NCBI GenBank assembly: GCA_043754515.1
Contig: JAYUUO010000160.1
Location: 1-36,102, forward strand
DNA: 36,102 nt
From: Armatimonadota bacterium
Lineage (GTDB): Bacteria; Armatimonadota; Armatimonadia; Armatimonadales; Armatimonadaceae
Reading direction: 5' to 3'
Both the position numbers and the translations under genes were made by a program. How positions within the stretch are numbered: the first letter of the stretch is position 1; every line of letters starts with the position of its first letter. This document shows, piece by piece, positions 1 to 34,217 of the stretch. The notes beneath the pieces are model-generated. The model was not told the DNA's origin. It saw only the letters and a list, made by a program, of their open reading frames with translations, and did not search any database.

Positions 1-103
1 ATTCGGCGTCTTCTACGTCGGAAGGATAGCGTTTCTTGATTTTTAATGTGGTTTCCACATTATTTGATACACTATTTGACTAGAACTAGTTCATAACACT
101 GTC
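1..103 (-). mobile_element. Left end and 5' part of an IS5-family (IS1031-like) transposase, running off the window edge
   Basis: Minus strand from GTG at 58 reads METTLKIKKRYPSDVEDAE(W), the YPSD..D.EW N-terminus typical of IS5 transposases. The putative terminal IR begins GACAGTGT at 103 and is flanked by TAA (104-106), a possible 3-bp target duplication. Locally AT-rich. Confidence 0.75.
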
Positions 104-104
104 T

Positions 105-433
105 AAAGAGCAAGGGGTTGTGTTGTCGTATTCCGCCGTGCATCAGAACTTCGCCCGGCGGGGCTACACGTTTAAGAAGAGACAATTATTGCCAGTGAAC
201 GCGACGCCGTGAAACGCGAGGCATTCCGGCGGGAGATCCGCGCGGTTCCGACATCAAAGCTCACGTTTTTGGATGAGTCAGGATGTCATCGAGCTTTCAC
301 ACGCTTGTACGGGTGGGCAAAGCGCGGTGACCGGTGCGTAGAAGCAGTGCCGTGCAATCGTGGTAAAAACCAGAGTGTTATCGGCGTTTGTAGCCTCTCA
401 AAAATGCTCTGCTGGCGAATCCAGGTAGGATGA
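105..433 (+). pseudogene. IS630-family transposase internal fragment (ORF1 end and ORF2 start), truncated at both ends
   Basis: One frame reads KEQGVVLSYSAVHQNFARRGYTFKK. The -1 frame continues KTIIASERD..TFLDESG..RLYGWAKRG..RGKNQSVIG, which contains the first catalytic D of the DDE motif. It stops at 433. Confidence 0.8.
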
Positions 434-701
434 AACCGACGCTAAAGAGCATCAGGTAGCCGACGAAAATGCACCCGTACCGGCCATCCTCCCGCGCGTC
501 CTCATGCGGCAAGAACCCCCACTCCTCCCACCGCTCGGGCTGACGCGTCCCGCTTCGGAGCAGGTACGCCACGGTCGCGACAATAACGGCCGCCATCACG
601 CCGGGGAAATAGCGCGACGAGAGCGGCGCGAATGCTATCACGAGGAACAGCCCTAGGAGCGTGGCCACCAACTCCGTGGAAGTTTGTTTTTCGCTGTTCA
701 T
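378..701 (-). pseudogene. Small membrane protein, probably 3'-truncated at the IS630 junction (~428)
   Basis: Three hydrophobic segments. The last ~15 codons are the antisense of IS630 sequence. ATG at 701, alternative TTG at 722. Confidence 0.45.
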
Positions 702-751
702 AAAGGGACGTAACGCCTTCAAGAAATAGTTTTGATATGCTCGTCGCGGTG

Positions 752-782
752 TTTAGCAGACCTCGCCGTCGCCGCGATATAG
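752..782 (+). promoter_or_regulatory. Putative alternative-sigma (sigma28-like) promoter for the leader/tRNA transcript
   Basis: TTTAGCAGACC-N12-CGATATAG. The same motif and spacing occur at 34217-34187 (-). CGATA resembles the sigma28 -10 element (GCCGATAA). Confidence 0.45.
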
Positions 783-809
783 CCCCCGAAGAGTAGCCGA
801 TACACGACC

Positions 810-926
810 ATGTACACCACGCCGATTTACCACAGCCCGATACCCGCGCCCTTTACCCTCTGGCAGCCAATGCCCTGGTTTATGGTCATGGTGGCGCGTA
901 CCCAAGCCGCGAGGCATCCCCGATAG
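810..926 (+). CDS. Putative leader (attenuator) peptide, 38 aa: MYTTPIYHSPIPAPFTLWQPMPWFMVMVARTQAARHPR
   Basis: ATG 810 to TAG 924-926. Codons 18-27 are TGG CAG CCA ATG CCC TGG TTT ATG GTC ATG, of which 8 of 10 are W/P/M/F, matching the downstream tRNAs. It ends 29 nt before a terminator hairpin. Only a weak SD (GAAGAG). Confidence 0.65.
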   Translation: MYTTPIYHSPIPAPFTLWQPMPWFMVMVARTQAARHPR

Positions 927-955
927 CGTAACAACGAACGCGGGGTTTCTCCTCT

Positions 956-1005
956 AAACGGCTCGGGGCGTACATCGGTTACGCGGACGGGCCGTTTTTG
1001 TTTTT
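956..1005 (+). terminator. Intrinsic terminator (attenuator) upstream of the tRNA cluster
   Basis: AAACGGCTCG (956-965) pairs with CGGGCCGTTT (988-997). Inner stem GCGTA/TACGC. Followed by TTTTTGTTTTT. Confidence 0.7.
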
Positions 1006-1056
1006 CATTTTTTACACCGTACGCTTCGTTTGTCGTTTCTGATCGTCGTTTTTTAT

Positions 1057-1130
1057 AGGGGCGTGGCGCAACCCGGTAGCGCAGTGGATTCCAAACCCAC
1101 CGGTTGCAGGTTCAAATCCTGTCGCCCCTG
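1057..1130 (+). tRNA. tRNA-Trp (CCA)
   Basis: Acceptor AGGGGCG/CGCCCCT, D stem GCGC/GCGC, anticodon arm GTGGA-TTCCAAA-CCCAC, T loop TTCAAAT, discriminator G. No encoded CCA end. Confidence 0.92.
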
Positions 1131-1142
1131 CTCGGCTCACTT

Positions 1143-1213
1143 CGGGATGTAGTGAAATGGTATAACCGCTGTTTTGGGAACAGCAATCGCTGGTTCGATC
1201 CCAGCCATTCCGA
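1143..1213 (+). tRNA. tRNA-Pro (UGG)
   Basis: Acceptor CGGGATG/CATTCCG, anticodon arm GCTGT-TTTGGGA-ACAGC, T arm GCTGG-TTCGATC-CCAGC, discriminator A. Confidence 0.92.
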
Positions 1214-1224
1214 TCATGTTTTGG

Positions 1225-1298
1225 TGCCGCGTAGCTCAGTCGGTCAGAGCAACGGTCTCATAAACCGTAGGTCACGGGTTCGAATCCCGTCGCGGCTA
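1225..1298 (+). tRNA. tRNA with CAU anticodon (elongator Met, or Ile2)
   Basis: Acceptor TGCCGCG/CGCGGCT with a U1.U72 mismatch, D stem GCTC/GAGC, anticodon arm ACGGT-CTCATAA-ACCGT, T arm ACGGG-TTCGAAT-CCCGT. Confidence 0.9.
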
Positions 1299-1339
1299 TC
1301 GCGGAAGGTGTCCCTTTCGCGTGGCAGGTGTGTCATTGA

Positions 1340-1414
1340 TCCGGTGTAGCTCAGTCTGGTAGCAGCGTCTGTCTGAAGAACAGAAGGTCGGCGGTTCAAA
1401 CCCGTTCGCCGGAA
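1340..1414 (+). tRNA. tRNA-Phe (GAA)
   Basis: Acceptor TCCGGTG/CGCCGGA, anticodon arm TCTGT-CTGAAGA-ACAGA, T arm GGCGG-TTCAAAC-CCGTT. The 3' part overlaps the end of the integrase gene. Confidence 0.88.
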
Positions 1415-2394
1415 TCCGTTTCGTCCGTAGTACCCGCGACTAGCGCGGCGATCTGCCCCTGCACATTGCGCTCGCGGTCGCGGTAGATCATCAGAACCTT
1501 GATGTCACGATGCCGCGAAAAGTCCATCACTTCTTCGAGCGGCATTCCGGCGGCTTGCGCGGCTTTGCACGCCTCGGTAATCGCGGTGTGCCGCAAACCG
1601 TGCGGCGCGACCGTCACCCCGACATCCGCCCCGCGCCCGCGCACCATACGGTAGATACTCGTCCCGGTCAGTCGCCGCGTCGCGCCCTTGTCCGCGTGGT
1701 CGAAGTTCACGAACAGCGGCCCCGGCTGGCTACCGCGCACCCCCAGCCACTCCGACAGCGCGGTCTTCGTCGCCGGGGCGAGCGTGAGCAACGTCCGCGT
1801 CGTGCGCCGCTTCCCGAGCACATGAACCGTGCCCCGGCTCAGATCCAGATCCGCGACATCGAGCGACGCCACCTCTGCCCGACGCAGTCCCAGATCGTAC
1901 AGGAGCCGCAGGATCGCACGGTCACGCCGGTTCGCCCGGTCGTTCTCGCCAACCGCCGTGGTCGCCAGCACCCGCTTCACCCCAGCCACGCCCGGCCCGC
2001 GCGTGTCTCTGTAAGGCTCGTCGGGCATGTTCGGGACGTCGAGCGTCCACGGTACGACGCCGAGCATCCGCGCCAGTTTCAGCAATGCACGGAGCGCGGA
2101 CAACGCCCGGTTTATCGTGGACGGAGCGAGTGCGCGCTCGCTCAAGTGGGCGCGGAAACGTAGCACCTCGCCGTTCGCCGCGCCCTGCCCCCCGGCGATC
2201 AGCGCGTGTACGGCGGCGGCGGCGGTCAGCGCACCGGAAAAGGCGCGGAACGTTTCGAGGTCGCTTTTATACGCGCGGAGCGTGCGCTCGTTGCGCCCGG
2301 CGAGGAACGTTTCCAGCAGGCGGAACGCGTCCGGGGCGACGACGGGCACCGGAACGAGTGGAGCGGGTTCGGGGGGCGGCGCGAGGTCTGACAT
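1396..2394 (-). CDS. Tyrosine recombinase/integrase (XerC-like)
   Basis: Catalytic motifs LGLRRAE, GK, HGLRH, SRH and IY. SAM-like N-terminus (RTLRAYKSDL, STINRALSALR). Start taken at ATG 2394, with a TAAAAT -10 at 2419-2414. Confidence 0.92.
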   Translation of the reverse strand: MSDLAPPPEPAPLVPVPVVAPDAFRLLETFLAGRNERTLRAYKSDLETFRAFSGALTAAAAVHALIAGGQGAANGEVLRFRAHLSERALAPSTINRALSALRALLKLARMLGVVPWTLDVPNMPDEPYRDTRGPGVAGVKRVLATTAVGENDRANRRDRAILRLLYDLGLRRAEVASLDVADLDLSRGTVHVLGKRRTTRTLLTLAPATKTALSEWLGVRGSQPGPLFVNFDHADKGATRRLTGTSIYRMVRGRGADVGVTVAPHGLRHTAITEACKAAQAAGMPLEEVMDFSRHRDIKVLMIYRDRERNVQGQIAALVAGTTDETDSGERV

Positions 2395-2860
2395 GGTGCG
2401 AGTTCCGTGCGCTATTTTACCGCGATAGGGGTTAGGGCGGTGTGAGCGGGCGAAAAATTGTTCCCGTTTGCGAGCCACAAATAGGAAGCCTCCGGCACAG
2501 GTTTTTTCGCGCCGGAAAAGACCAGGTAGGCGCATAGCGTCGCGCTTGTATTTCTATTGGGAATTACCGCGCTTGGCGGTTCGGACGGAGTGGCGTTACT
2601 CGTTCGTGAAAACACCGGCGATAGGCCGGATAGGAAGCACCGTGTTTATGTGGGATAACGTTTCGTCATCATGCGCCTGACCTCATCACCTTCGCGACGG
2701 CGGCGGGGTATGTCCGGTATATTCCCCTTGAGGCCGACTCGTTTTTCGTTAATGTAGCGGGAGTGGCCCTATCTGTTAATGTTCACGTTCTGACTATGCC
2801 GCCCGCCGACGAGAGTCGCCAGGCGATTCCTTTGACCTGAGAAGAACACACCACCGAATC

Positions 2861-4185
2861 ATGTACATCACCCGCGTCGAAATCAAAGCCATACGCTCGA
2901 TAAAGCATCTCGTGTGGGAGATTGACGTCGCGAGTGCCGCCGGCTGGCACGTCATCCTCGGCGATAACGGCTCGGGTAAGTCAACGTTCACCCGATGCGT
3001 TGCGCTCTCCCTCATCGGTCAACGGGACGCCCAATTTCTGAGACTGGAATGGGATTCGTGGATCCGAGTTGGCGAAAGACAAGGATCGTGCGAACTCAAT
3101 ATCAGTATTCACGAGAACATAGATTTTGACACAGGTTCAGAAATCGCGCCGGGGCCGTTTCATATGGATGCGAATAATAACTACACAATGGATGTGGGCG
3201 TGATGGTTCTTGAAGGATACATCCAGAACAACGGATCAATACGTAGGATTCCCGCGTTTCTGACAGATGCCACAAACGCAACCCATAATCATCTGATTGC
3301 CGAGAAGAAGTTCGCGGGCTTTAGTAATTCGTTCGGTCCCTTCCGGCGTTTTACAGGGGGCGAATTGGAGGACGAGAAACTCTCCGAGTCGAACCCGCAA
3401 GCCTACAGGCATCTTTCCGCCTTTAGCGAAAGGGTGGCATTGACCGAAGGACTGAAGTGGCTTAAACAGCTACAGTTCGAGGCCATAGATACGGTTGACA
3501 GAAATCCCGACGCGGCATTGTTAATTGAAAGTGTGCGGAACTTCGTGAACCAGGGGGGATTGTTGCCAAACGGTGTGCGGCTACTGCATATCTCATCCGC
3601 TGGCGTCAAGTTTCAGGATGGTAACGGGAGCGAGATACTCGCCGAGGAGATGAGTGACGGCTACCGCTCCGTGCTCGCGTTGACCTTCGAGCTGTTGCGC
3701 CAACTCTCCGTCGCCTACGGCCCCGATATATTTCAGACGCAAGACGGCGGGAAGGTGACGGTGAGTTTCCCGGCGTGGTGCAGATTGACGAGGTGGACGC
3801 GCACCTGCACCCGACGTGGCAGAAGCGCATCGGGTTCTGGTTCCGCGAGGATTTCCCGCAGATGCAGTTCATCGTCACCACCCACAGCCCGCTCGTTTGC
3901 CAGGCCGCCGAGATTGGTAGCATCTTCCTTCTGCCTCGTCCCGGCTCCGAAGAAAATGGTCGGATGCTCGCGGGTATGGAGCGCGATAGGCTCATTTACG
4001 GCAACATTTTAGACGCGTATGGCACCGAGGCGTTCGGGAGTGGGGCCGCAGCGCGTTCTGACCGGACGGGGGAACTGCTGACCGAACTCAGCGGGCTGAA
4101 CATTAAGGAGATCCGAACCGGGCTCTCCGACGCGGAGAAGAAACGTCAGGCAGAGTTGCGGGCGATGTTGCCCACCGGCTCTCCC
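2861..4185 (+). pseudogene. ABC/AAA ATPase (PtuA/AAA_21-like), frameshifted at ~3770 and lacking its own stop
   Basis: Walker A GDNGSGKS and signature-like MSDGYRS. Walker B/D-loop IDEVDAHLHPTWQ and H-loop FIVTTHSP lie in the -1 frame starting at 3766-3772. Confidence 0.8.
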
Positions 4186-4990
4186 CTGTTACAACTTCCT
4201 GCCACCACCCTCCCTGATCACGCATCCCGTGCGCTCCAGTTGTGGCAGTCCGACATTGACGTCTTGCCGGACTACGCCAGCCGGGTCGCTGAGGCGAAGC
4301 GCTCATGGTCTTTGAGAAACACGAAGGCGAACAAGACACTCACCGCCGTGAAGGAGACGTTGGCGTCCATGCAAGGCATGTTGCGTCGTTATGCCTACTG
4401 CGAGGATTCTTGCGCCGATGAGGTGGGGCATATTCGTCCTAAAGACCTATATCCCGAACTAGTCTTCGCCTGGGCGAACTACCTGTACGCATGCGGCTGC
4501 TGCAATGTCGAGAAGCGCAACGACTTCGCCGTCTTCGCCGGCGCGACGGACGAATGGCACGATGTGAAACGTGGGCGAGATGCCCCGGTTCTCCCGCCTC
4601 GAACCGGAGAACCGGTCCTCATCAACCCTCGTCATGAAAACCCGGTTGACTTTCTGATACTCGATCTTGGCACATTCCAATTCGTCCCACTGGCCGACCC
4701 CGGAACACGCGATCATACGCGGGCAGTTTACACGATGAGTGTGCTCTCTCTTGGACGTGAACCGCTCCGGAAGGCACGGGAAAACGCGGTGCATGGCTTC
4801 CGTGATCGGTTATACGCTTACGGACGGGCAAAAGCAGAGGGTCACGCCGCTGGGGAGTTGAGCCGAAGTCAAACCTCGCTTCTGCACAGTCCTCACCAAA
4901 CTGTCTGGCGGGAGATGCAACGGCAATCGCTCATCTCGCCAAGGTTAGCAACTCTCTATCGAAGCCGCGCCCGAAGCCCTCCAATGGTGA
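4186..4990 (+). pseudogene. HNH endonuclease (PtuB-like), in frame with the ATPase C-terminus and degenerate
   Basis: RRYAYCEDSCADEVGHIRPKDLYPELVFAWANYLYACGCCN and LINPRHENP. The first CxxC reads YAYC. Removing one base at ~4958 restores a natural-looking end LFEAAPEALQW* (TGA 4988-4990). Confidence 0.75.
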
Positions 4991-5110
4991 ACCGCGAGTC
5001 GCTCGCCTGCGCCATGACACGATGCCCACTAAAAAAGTCGCTCCGTTTCGGCTCACCCCCTCAGTACTTCTACCGCCAGAATATCGCCCGCCCTCTCCAC
5101 CGCGAGCGCA

Positions 5111-5926
5111 TTACTTCCGCAAACTCCGCTCATAAAGCAGGCGCAATCCCGTCAGCGTCAGGTTGACGTCCACGATCTCAATGGAGTTCGTGTACGGCGC
5201 GATCAGCGGCGCGATGCCCCCGGTCGCGATCACGCGCACATCCGCGCCGCGCTCCGCTAGCTCGCCGACGAACCGCGCCGTCATACCGTCCGTCTGCGCC
5301 GCGAACCCGTACAAGATGCCGCTCCGCAATGCCTCCGCCGTGTTCGTCCCGATCGCGTTTCCGGGCTTCGACAACTCGACCTGCGACAGCATCGCGGCGC
5401 GGGCGAACAGCGCGTCCATTGAGATCCCGATGCCCGGCAGAATCGCCCCGCCCAGATACTCGCCCTTCGCTGTCACTGCGTCCAGCGTGGTCGCCGTGCC
5501 GTAGTCCACGATCACGCAGGCGGCGGTCGCGAACGCGCTCTGCCGCGCCTCCCCGGATCGCGCGTACAGGGCGTGGGCCGCGAACGCGTTCACGATGCGG
5601 TCCGCGCCCACCGCGTGCGGCGGATTGTACAGGTTTTTCAGCCCGGTATCGGTGTCGGCGGTAACTATCAGCGGCTCCACATTGAGGTGTCGGGTCGCCA
5701 GTTCGCGCAGGGTTCCCCCGACCGGCGGTACCACGTATGCCATCGCCATGCCGGTTATGTCACCGAGGCCGTACCCTTTCGTGAGCAGAAGGGACGCGAT
5801 CAGCGCGGCGAACTCGTCCGCCGTCCGGTCGCGACGCGACTGCAAACGGAAGTCGCAGAGCAGGGTCTCCCCATCGAATAGACCGAGCGTGGTGTTCGTG
5901 TTCCCGATGTCAATGGCGAGTAGCAT
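5111..5926 (-). CDS. coaX: Type III pantothenate kinase
   Basis: MLLAIDIGNTN, VGADR, IVDYGTATT, GGAILPG and IATGG motifs. Confidence 0.96.
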   Translation of the reverse strand: MLLAIDIGNTNTTLGLFDGETLLCDFRLQSRRDRTADEFAALIASLLLTKGYGLGDITGMAMAYVVPPVGGTLRELATRHLNVEPLIVTADTDTGLKNLYNPPHAVGADRIVNAFAAHALYARSGEARQSAFATAACVIVDYGTATTLDAVTAKGEYLGGAILPGIGISMDALFARAAMLSQVELSKPGNAIGTNTAEALRSGILYGFAAQTDGMTARFVGELAERGADVRVIATGGIAPLIAPYTNSIEIVDVNLTLTGLRLLYERSLRK

Positions 5927-33838: not shown

Positions 33839-34141
33839 GTCAGCCCGAAACGAAAAAGTCTGCGGACCTCCACCGTCGCGCCAAACTCCTCCAGTTGTTC
33901 CTTCGCCCGTAGCGCGTCCGACAGCGTCACGTTATCAAGCACCGTCCTAGGGGCACGATCAACGAGTACCATCGCGTCCCCCAGGCCGAGGCCGGTGATC
34001 TCGCGAACCACCTTAGATGACCTGAATCTTCTTGTCACCCGATGTCAGTAATACTATGGCGTGAACGGGGTCGGTGCCTTCGACGCGCTCGGTGTCGTTG
34101 TACCGGGTGTTGTCGTCGAGCGGATAAAGTCGGGAATACAT
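33835..34141 (-). pseudogene. Second L7/L12 C-terminal-domain gene with a novel N-terminus, split by a 1-nt insertion
   Basis: [42 protein letters not shown] (TAA 34015-34013), continuing in the +1 frame as [22 protein letters not shown]...LEEFGATVEVR. Confidence 0.85.
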
Positions 34142-34186
34142 GACGGCCTCTGTTCTGTTTTGTTTGTGCTGTTTTGTAACGCCCTG

Positions 34187-34217
34187 CTTTATCGGATGGG
34201 TTTGGGGGTTTGCTAAA
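34187..34217 (-). promoter_or_regulatory. Putative alternative-sigma promoter of the L7/L12 paralog
   Basis: TTTAGCAAACC-N12-CGATAAAG, the same architecture as 752-782. Confidence 0.45.

Follow-up and report, generated by a model that had tools for sequence, protein, structure and literature searches.

The window analysed here is the 36,102-nucleotide (nt) contig JAYUUO010000160.1 of an Armatimonadota bacterium belonging to the Armatimonadaceae (assembly GCA_043754515.1), and it carries near its start a short open reading frame (ORF), an intrinsic terminator and a cluster of four tRNA genes. The ORF is rich in codons for Trp, Pro, Met and Phe, the amino acids of the four tRNA genes, and units of the same build, in which the leader follows the content of the tRNA cluster, are present in relatives of this bacterium. 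It is likely that a stress promoter and ribosome stalling at cognate codons jointly permit read-through into these matching spare tRNA genes; cells would then probably make more of exactly those tRNAs that their ribosomes run short of. The core of this idea, a leader-peptide attenuator of matching spare tRNAs, was put forward in a preliminary description of this DNA, and is supported by conservation of the reading frame and by co-variation over 26 units. The features of the unit, all on the forward strand, are as follows.

752–779, forward: predicted promoter TTTAGC-N17-CGATA, from motif enrichment and its retention in orthologous units
810–926, forward: leader ORF of 38 amino acids, rich in Trp, Pro, Met and Phe (W/P/M/F), with orthologous ORFs in genomes G002 and G003
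837–890, forward: sensing stretch, codons 10–27 (P-I-P-A-P-F-T-L-W-Q-P-M-P-W-F-M-V-M)
890–914, forward: predicted 5' strand of the antiterminator, codons 28–35, pairing with the terminator 5' arm at about 948–978 in minimum free energy folds
956–1005, forward: intrinsic terminator, hairpin 956–997 (−21.4 kcal/mol) and T run 995–1005, with compensatory pairs
1057–1131, forward: auxiliary tRNA-Trp(CCA) (ARAGORN, Rfam); another Trp gene lies on contig C211
1142–1215, forward: auxiliary tRNA-Pro(UGG) (ARAGORN, Rfam); another Pro(UGG) gene lies on C23
1225–1298, forward: auxiliary tRNA-CAU, most likely elongator Met (ARAGORN, Rfam)
1340–1414, forward: auxiliary tRNA-Phe(GAA) (ARAGORN, Rfam); another Phe gene lies on C286

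The leader ORF translates as MYTTPIYHSPIPAPFTLWQPMPWFMVMVARTQAARHPR. Its codons 14–27 read PFTLWQPMPWFMVM, of which 10 of 14 are W/P/M/F, as are eight of the ten codons 18–27; over the whole leader these amino acids take 14 of 37 codons, compared with 12.4% in the long ORFs of the genome (binomial P = 7.5e-5). The coordinates and counts given in the preliminary description for a 38-codon ORF ahead of a terminator and four tRNA genes were therefore reproduced, and the check on chance that it had called for found at least eight W/P/M/F codons within some 10-codon window in just 8 of the 13,141 ATG-initiated ORFs of 25–50 amino acids in the genome. Conservation points the same way, with the leader kept in frame in the same-genus genomes G002 and G003 and a core of P-F/I-x-x-W-Q-P-x-P-W common to the three orthologous leaders. 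Between the window's own genome (G000) and G002, 10 of 15 identical leader residues use synonymous codons. Two finer claims fared less well. Codon 20 (Pro) is indeed CCA in the window, the cognate of the UGG anticodon, but it is CCC in both orthologues, and anticodon-exact matching is unsupported; the agreement between the W-P-M-F order of the leader and the order of the tRNA genes holds only if counted from codon 18, with a rho of 0 for the whole leader. The leader peptide has no Pfam match. Contigs from four DNA sequencing runs list no differences within the leader and one at position 955, these being too similar to be informative.

The genome holds other Trp, Pro(UGG), CAU and Phe genes, making the four tRNAs of the window second copies. 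The CAU gene is identical at 59 of 74 positions to a CAU gene on contig C194, compared with 45–54 for the other four CAU genes, and the C194 gene is presumably an elongator Met, judged from its identity elements. Supernumerary tRNA genes beside a housekeeping set, as in a long array (L-array), are thus a feature of this genome. The only genes that come after the leader are the four tRNA genes, and beyond them lies a convergent recombinase.

Evidence for a sensing role comes from comparison between units. Transfer RNA genes were listed in 18 of 32 family genomes and likely clusters were fetched from those listed (for G026, tRNAs were listed and no region was fetched), yielding a sample of at least 26 promoter-leader-terminator-tRNA units from at least 12 genomes and six genera. 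The tandem leaders of G009, units at contig ends (the W/P/M/F unit of G001 and loci L085 and L052, L numbers denoting loci from genomes or metagenomes) and leaderless promoter units were excluded from the 26. Mean enrichment of leader codons for the amino acids of the unit's own tRNA cluster was z = 3.68, against 0.19 ± 0.37 for shuffled pairings, a value reached in none of 200,000 permutations; among 15 non-redundant units it was 3.86, against 0.17 ± 0.50. The proposal that leader content should co-vary with tRNA content is therefore upheld. Individually, 23 of the 26 leaders have P < 0.05, and in six genomes with several units the best match was the leader's own cluster for 19 of 19 leaders, weakly so for the two of G010. 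With one unit per genus, since kin are not independent, the median P was 0.0014, and a set of 20 units that also took in misses and metagenome units gave a mean of 3.43 against 0.24 permuted (0/100,000). The pairings are varied: leaders rich in K/T/R/Q stand ahead of Lys-Thr-Arg-Gln-Lys genes, those rich in S/C/G/H ahead of Ser-Ser-Cys-Gly-His, and those rich in Y/D/N/Q/A/L ahead of Tyr-Asp-Asn-Gln-Ala-Leu3, and similar pairs join G/A-rich leaders to Gly-Gly-Ala, Ile-rich leaders to Ile-CAU and Pro-rich leaders to Tyr-Pro.

When 39 metagenome loci were scanned with the leader-picking rule unchanged, the promoter was found in five, and each of these has both a terminator and a leader; two of the leaders had not been seen before (z 4.5 and 1.3), the other three being repeats of known ones. 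In four more loci, an A/H/Y/P-type leader with a terminator occurs in the absence of the stress promoter (z 3.5 in L215, 1.9 in L199). The regions fetched from G006, G011, G013 and G014, covering some clusters among the tRNAs listed, contain no matched unit. A DNA BLAST search with the Leu unit described below matched 2 of 32 family genomes and missed the orthologous Leu units of G002 and G003, showing that DNA search is too insensitive for this purpose, and a phylum-wide BLAST with tRNA-Trp/Pro retrieved mostly ordinary tRNA genes outside the family.

Gain and loss of individual tRNA genes is mirrored in the leaders. Internal Met codons are missing from the leader of a W,P,F unit (L094), and both Trp and Met from that of a P,F unit (L047). 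The cluster of G003 has as its fourth gene a Phe gene body with the anticodon GAU (Ile), and the aligned leader codon is ATT, compared with TTT in G000 and G002. Similarly, Leu and Thr genes are missing from the big array of G000, whose leader contains no Leu and two Thr codons, whereas the G002 array has both kinds of gene and its leader has five codons for each. In four orthologue pairs that could be aligned, each of the nine internal gaps has a length divisible by three, the W/P/M/F leaders being too diverged for this comparison. The peptides themselves drift quickly, with 41 synonymous against 134 non-synonymous codon differences over eight pairs, as would be expected where composition, and not the product, matters. 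The match holds at the amino-acid level only. Collinearity between codon order and gene order was rejected over 18 units with at least three amino acids (mean Spearman rho −0.07 by first appearance, −0.26 by mean position), and exactly pairing codons were used 182 times out of 558, against 224 expected from genome usage. The 26 leaders thus underuse exact-pairing codons, preferring for example TTT and ATT, which may raise sensitivity or may only mirror lower GC content.

The window's genome has two further units of this kind. On contig C75 a promoter and a 24-codon leader with seven Leu codons are followed by a terminator and three tRNA-Leu genes, and on the overlapping contigs C128 and C219 a promoter, a 63-codon leader and a terminator precede a 16-tRNA array. 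The latter leader is without Pro, Trp, Phe and Leu, and the array is without those species. Each of the three leaders scores highly on its own cluster (z 4.7, 3.4 and 4.4) and below 0 on the other two. Together the spare modules cover 19 of the 20 amino acids, split as 4 + 3 + 16 genes, in contrast to the single long block of an L-array. A terminator within 200 nt ahead is rare among its tRNA transcription units, occurring in 3 of 49 with at least 150 nt of upstream DNA; the three are two leader units and a Thr-Tyr unit, and the last has a sigma-70-like promoter after its terminator.

The promoter ties these units to a wider set of genes. At a spacer of 17, TTTAGC-N17-CGA[TC]A has 23 copies in the genome, compared with 0–10 at other spacers, and the exact motif has 21 copies against two for a reversed control. 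Enrichment of the exact motif is seen in four of six family genomes (21, 12, 20 and 16 copies against 2–3 in the control), G013 and G007 having four and one copies, respectively; none of eight sister-family genomes is enriched for it. From 65 weight-matrix matches, 20 downstream ORFs were picked for annotation. Their products include RtcB, three RNA ligases, a Pnkp-like protein, Thg1, MutS2, an HflX N-terminus, RsgA, MetRS (metG), an HNH nuclease, two GNATs, DUF4291 and DUF7873 proteins, with no Pfam match in two of the 20 and no biosynthesis gene among them. The element at 752–779 is thus predicted to be the promoter of a translation-stress regulon of RNA repair and ribosome rescue. Contig C150 (89954–90967, reverse strand; also loci L267 and L275–L280) encodes a group-2 sigma factor that is RpoD-like and altered in region 2.4. 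It has close orthologues (74–82%) in five of five family genomes, against no more than 55% elsewhere. The motif or a one-letter variant lies upstream of the sigma gene itself in G000, G008, G011 and G012, with a similar variant seen by inspection in G013 and none in G007. This family-specific sigma factor probably reads the TTTAGC-N17-CGATA promoter, and it is a candidate master regulator. The alternative-sigma promoter with its translation-stress regulon, together with the genome-wide modular units, extends the proposal beyond what was first described.

The start codon lies 36–39 nt from the first base of the promoter in 16 of the 26 units, suggesting that those leaders are probably leaderless mRNAs or nearly so; in the window unit the 5' untranslated region is about 23 nt. 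Other copies of the motif have surroundings of their own. A second copy in the window, at 34190–34217 on the reverse strand just downstream of rplL, is followed by a 43-amino-acid ORF (34013–34142, reverse strand), the end of which repeats an L7/L12 stretch. At L263 (contig C100, minus strand) an EF-G-like gene is preceded by an Ala/Arg-rich ORF of 48 codons and a promoter-like motif, possibly a further attenuator. At L259 (contig C39, 11127 onward), behind a promoter copy, a long ORF has in its 5' part about five repeats of a short sequence ending CTTCCTTCTA.

The terminator hairpin begins 29 nt past the leader stop, and the predicted hairpin and T run between the ORF and tRNA-Trp, as first described, gain weight from compensatory changes in the stem in three same-genus orthologues. 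A simple terminator scan did not report 956–1005, and the folding of a 121-nt region around it is no better than that of shuffled sequences (z −1.0). Special folding of the leader as a whole was likewise rejected (z +0.74). Over the 26 units, the distance from stop codon to terminator is always 12–46 nt, and the end of the ORF out-pairs its start with the terminator arm in 25. In small modules, the matched codons are sparser over the last eight leader codons. The predicted antiterminator duplex of the window has a free energy of −22.7 kcal/mol, and 1 of 17 foreign ORF ends pairs equally well. For a transcript ending in the terminator loop, sequestration of the arm is 0.65 with the ribosomal A site at codons 18–25 and falls to 0.2–0.4 past codon 27; around 24 of the 26 units show a comparable drop, to which the shorter free RNA alone would also contribute.

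Under the proposed mechanism, translation stress would cause the alternative sigma factor to fire the promoter at 752–779 along with RNA-repair and ribosome-rescue genes. We infer the identity of the sigma factor and the induction by stress from the observed motif and gene list. A ribosome would then translate the leader, and where W/P/M/F codons are read quickly it would cover codons 28–35, allowing the terminator to form and transcription to stop near 1000. Were it to stall at about codons 10–26 through a shortage of aminoacyl-tRNA, the end of the ORF could instead pair with the terminator 5' arm, and with this arm sequestered RNA polymerase would read into the four tRNA genes. Here the composition match is observed, the structures are predicted and the switching is what they would imply. 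With the spare set split into modules (W/P/M/F, three Leu genes and 16 genes) that have matched leaders, it is the family in short supply that would be resupplied. Loss of functional tRNA, through cleavage, damage or antibiotic sequestration, is the most likely trigger; amino-acid starvation is less so, given that the co-regulated genes serve RNA repair and that extra tRNA cannot cure a shortage of amino acids. More tentatively, and at rather less than even probability, the whole may form a homeostat, in which the modules, the leaders rewritten with their tRNAs and an autoregulated sigma factor, derived via array splitting, would replace a destroyed tRNA family with divergent copies.

Arrangements related to these units extend beyond the family. 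In the sister family and the Chthonomonadaceae, long arrays are preceded by a leader containing most amino acids and then a terminator, and tandem double leader-terminator units stand ahead of long arrays at L204, L209, L217, L223, L040, L147, L143, L191 and L157, several of these sister-family and Chthonomonadaceae tandem units lying behind a sigma-70-like promoter. In the second family, one 16-bp antiterminator is 93% paired over six loci. From this distribution, the matched modules may have arisen by the splitting of a long array with an all-amino-acid leader. Among viral contigs, promoter, leader and terminator together were found in 0 of 23 loci, with 2.5-kb flanks that often missed the array start, and the sole genome match outside the Armatimonadota (a Mycolicibacterium locus) has no such leader.

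Several observations weigh against the attenuator reading. The ATG of the window leader has no clear Shine-Dalgarno sequence, three of the 26 leaders (L033, L105 and L106) have no significant match, and the two tandem leaders of G009 score 0.4 and 0.0. The leader-picking rule was fixed after most of the 26 units were known, and scoring the L125 CAU gene as Ile was likewise a choice made with its leader already known. Matching of codons to anticodons with wobble allowed is close to expectation (201 of 317 informative codons against 196, z 0.6). The promoter also occurs without a leader, in a Met/Phe/Arg/Trp unit (g6), in Thr and Lys units of the window's genome, and in a Glu-Glu unit of G012. 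With regard to structure, the window antiterminator has p = 0.19 against shuffles, and p ≤ 0.05 is reached in only 8 of 26 units (about one expected; mean z −1.3), whilst the 16-bp helix of the second family has just one pair in which both bases differ and does no better than shuffles. For almost every ribosome position, the terminator is the favoured equilibrium structure of the full window transcript; read-through would therefore have to be kinetic, with the antiterminator forming first, and a clear equilibrium switch is seen in only 4 of the 26 units.

The same attenuator could be a classical starvation sensor, triggered by limitation of Trp, Pro, Met or Phe, with the extra tRNA capturing the scarce amino acid. 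Classical leaders act in this way (PMC8079986, in part), and a match at the level of the amino acid, as opposed to the anticodon, is the pattern expected of one. This is nevertheless unlikely, since the 20 annotated targets of the promoter concern RNA repair and ribosome rescue and not biosynthesis, the amino-acid groupings vary from one genus to another and are not those of biosynthetic families, and the overlap with the TrcR regulon of Anabaena (rtcB, rsgA, GNAT, HNH) points to translation damage (PMC10272220, in part). Less probable again is a general sensor of slowed translation, like antibiotic-responsive upstream ORFs (uORFs), in which read-through follows any stall within the leader, the codon match being a by-product. 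Stalling by ribosome antibiotics would affect every leader, and the long arrays of the second family and the Chthonomonadaceae do have mixed leaders (z about −0.2 to 2.9), but mixed leaders before near-complete arrays are equally predicted by the matched model, and the joint gain and loss of leader amino acids and tRNA genes would be left unexplained.

The rapid drift of the peptide sequences would also suit a chance or relic ORF, with the terminator ending an unrelated short RNA and the tRNA genes silent or transcribed from a promoter within 1005–1056. The permutation results and the frame-preserving gaps argue against this, and the internal promoter, which the preliminary description had named as a finding that would overturn its proposal, is disfavoured by the orthologues, where the 0–9 nt between the T run and tRNA-Trp leave too little room for one; no sigma-70-like site was found on the forward strand of 1–2500 either. 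A chance ORF is therefore the least probable of these alternatives, and very improbable. The preferred reading remains that stress promoter and cognate-codon stalling act together on matching spare tRNA genes.

Around the unit, a tyrosine recombinase gene (1396–2394, reverse strand) converges on the cluster, its stop codon lying inside the 3' end of tRNA-Phe; an attB-type duplicate of that 3' end was not found within the window. Upstream, at 209–433 on the forward strand, is a remnant DDE_3 (IS630-like) transposase. Further downstream (2861–5166, forward strand) an AAA_21 ATPase split between two frames runs into a region with HNH-like Cys/His motifs, seen by eye; the arrangement resembles a defence pair of ATPase and nuclease in which a frameshift or an assembly error has occurred. 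Rfam matches to YrlA and Plastid-ycf2 were far under cut-offs, overlap the tRNAs and were discarded, with no other Rfam element found. Arrays elsewhere have insertions of their own. In L085 and L146 a non-tRNA segment lies between the tRNA genes of auxiliary arrays; it matched no Rfam family, and we take it to correspond to 23S rRNA helices 69–71 (the I-CeuI site). RNA-ligase-like and RtcB-like ORFs, with translations judged by eye, lie inside long tRNA arrays at L186, L191 and L220, and the L143 array contains a group II intron.

Leader-peptide attenuators are well known from enterobacterial trpL, hisL and pheL, from the multivalent thrL and ilv leaders, and from pheM-pheST. The window unit resembles them in its short ORF rich in cognate codons and its terminator before the regulated genes, and may do so in the antiterminator predicted over the ORF end, and it is multivalent in the manner of thrL and the ilv leaders. 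It differs in that classical attenuators control enzyme, transport or synthetase genes whilst the regulated genes here are tRNA genes, and in that several modules per genome divide the genetic code behind a stress-type promoter. Further attenuators of the classical kind are the Streptomyces leuL, trpL and ilvL leaders (PMC8079986, in part) and the cysS uORF (PMC8632094, in part).

The closest parallel in function is the trn operon (an L-array) of Anabaena PCC 7120, in which supernumerary tRNAs are tied to translation stress (PMC8421152 and PMC10272220, both in part) and rtcB, rsgA, GNAT and HNH genes are co-regulated (PMC10272220, in part). That operon is one 26-gene block under the ribbon-helix-helix repressor TrcR, and the words leader and attenuation are absent from the main texts of the two papers (PMC8421152 and PMC10272220, main texts in part), whereas the modules described here are small, each with a matched leader and terminator and an apparent alternative-sigma promoter. 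The WblC/WhiB7 system of Streptomyces is likewise a translation-stress regulon with tRNA genes, hflX, GNATs and synthetases, and involves a uORF attenuator; that uORF, however, controls the regulator wblC and not tRNA genes, with no match to tRNA content reported in the part of the paper available (PMC7157823). T-box riboswitches also terminate transcription conditionally by reading tRNA status (PMC2965389, in part), but they bind uncharged tRNA directly and without an ORF; an Rfam scan of positions 1–3000 (E ≤ 5) gave no T-box match. Divergent phage tRNAs have been proposed, in the title of PMC10264068, to evade anticodon nucleases, which is a parallel only. The preliminary description knew of no attenuator of tRNA genes, and no leader-peptide attenuator of this kind was found in the literature searched, a partial coverage of mostly open-access papers without supplements; in the available parts of the Breaker-lab uORF surveys no relevant passage appeared under the terms tried. 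What this unit and its counterparts contribute is the modular division of the code, with co-variation of leaders and tRNA genes through gain and loss.

Bacterial tRNA genes are known to be controlled in bulk, by growth rate, the stringent response or repressors such as TrcR. The tRNA operon of this window appears to gauge how fast its own amino acids are decoded, which would be direct feedback on tRNA supply, and changes in tRNA gene content, even one as small as a single anticodon shift, are accompanied by changes in leader codons. This offers a testable function for spare tRNA arrays, and the units provide a natural library of short, amino-acid-specific sensors that could be assayed in Escherichia coli or a cultured Armatimonadota strain. 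For a poorly studied phylum, the by-products are a promoter motif, a translation-stress regulon and a candidate sigma factor. If the homeostat proposed above is true, these bacteria would be able to replace specifically a tRNA family lost to an anticodon nuclease, toxin or drug.
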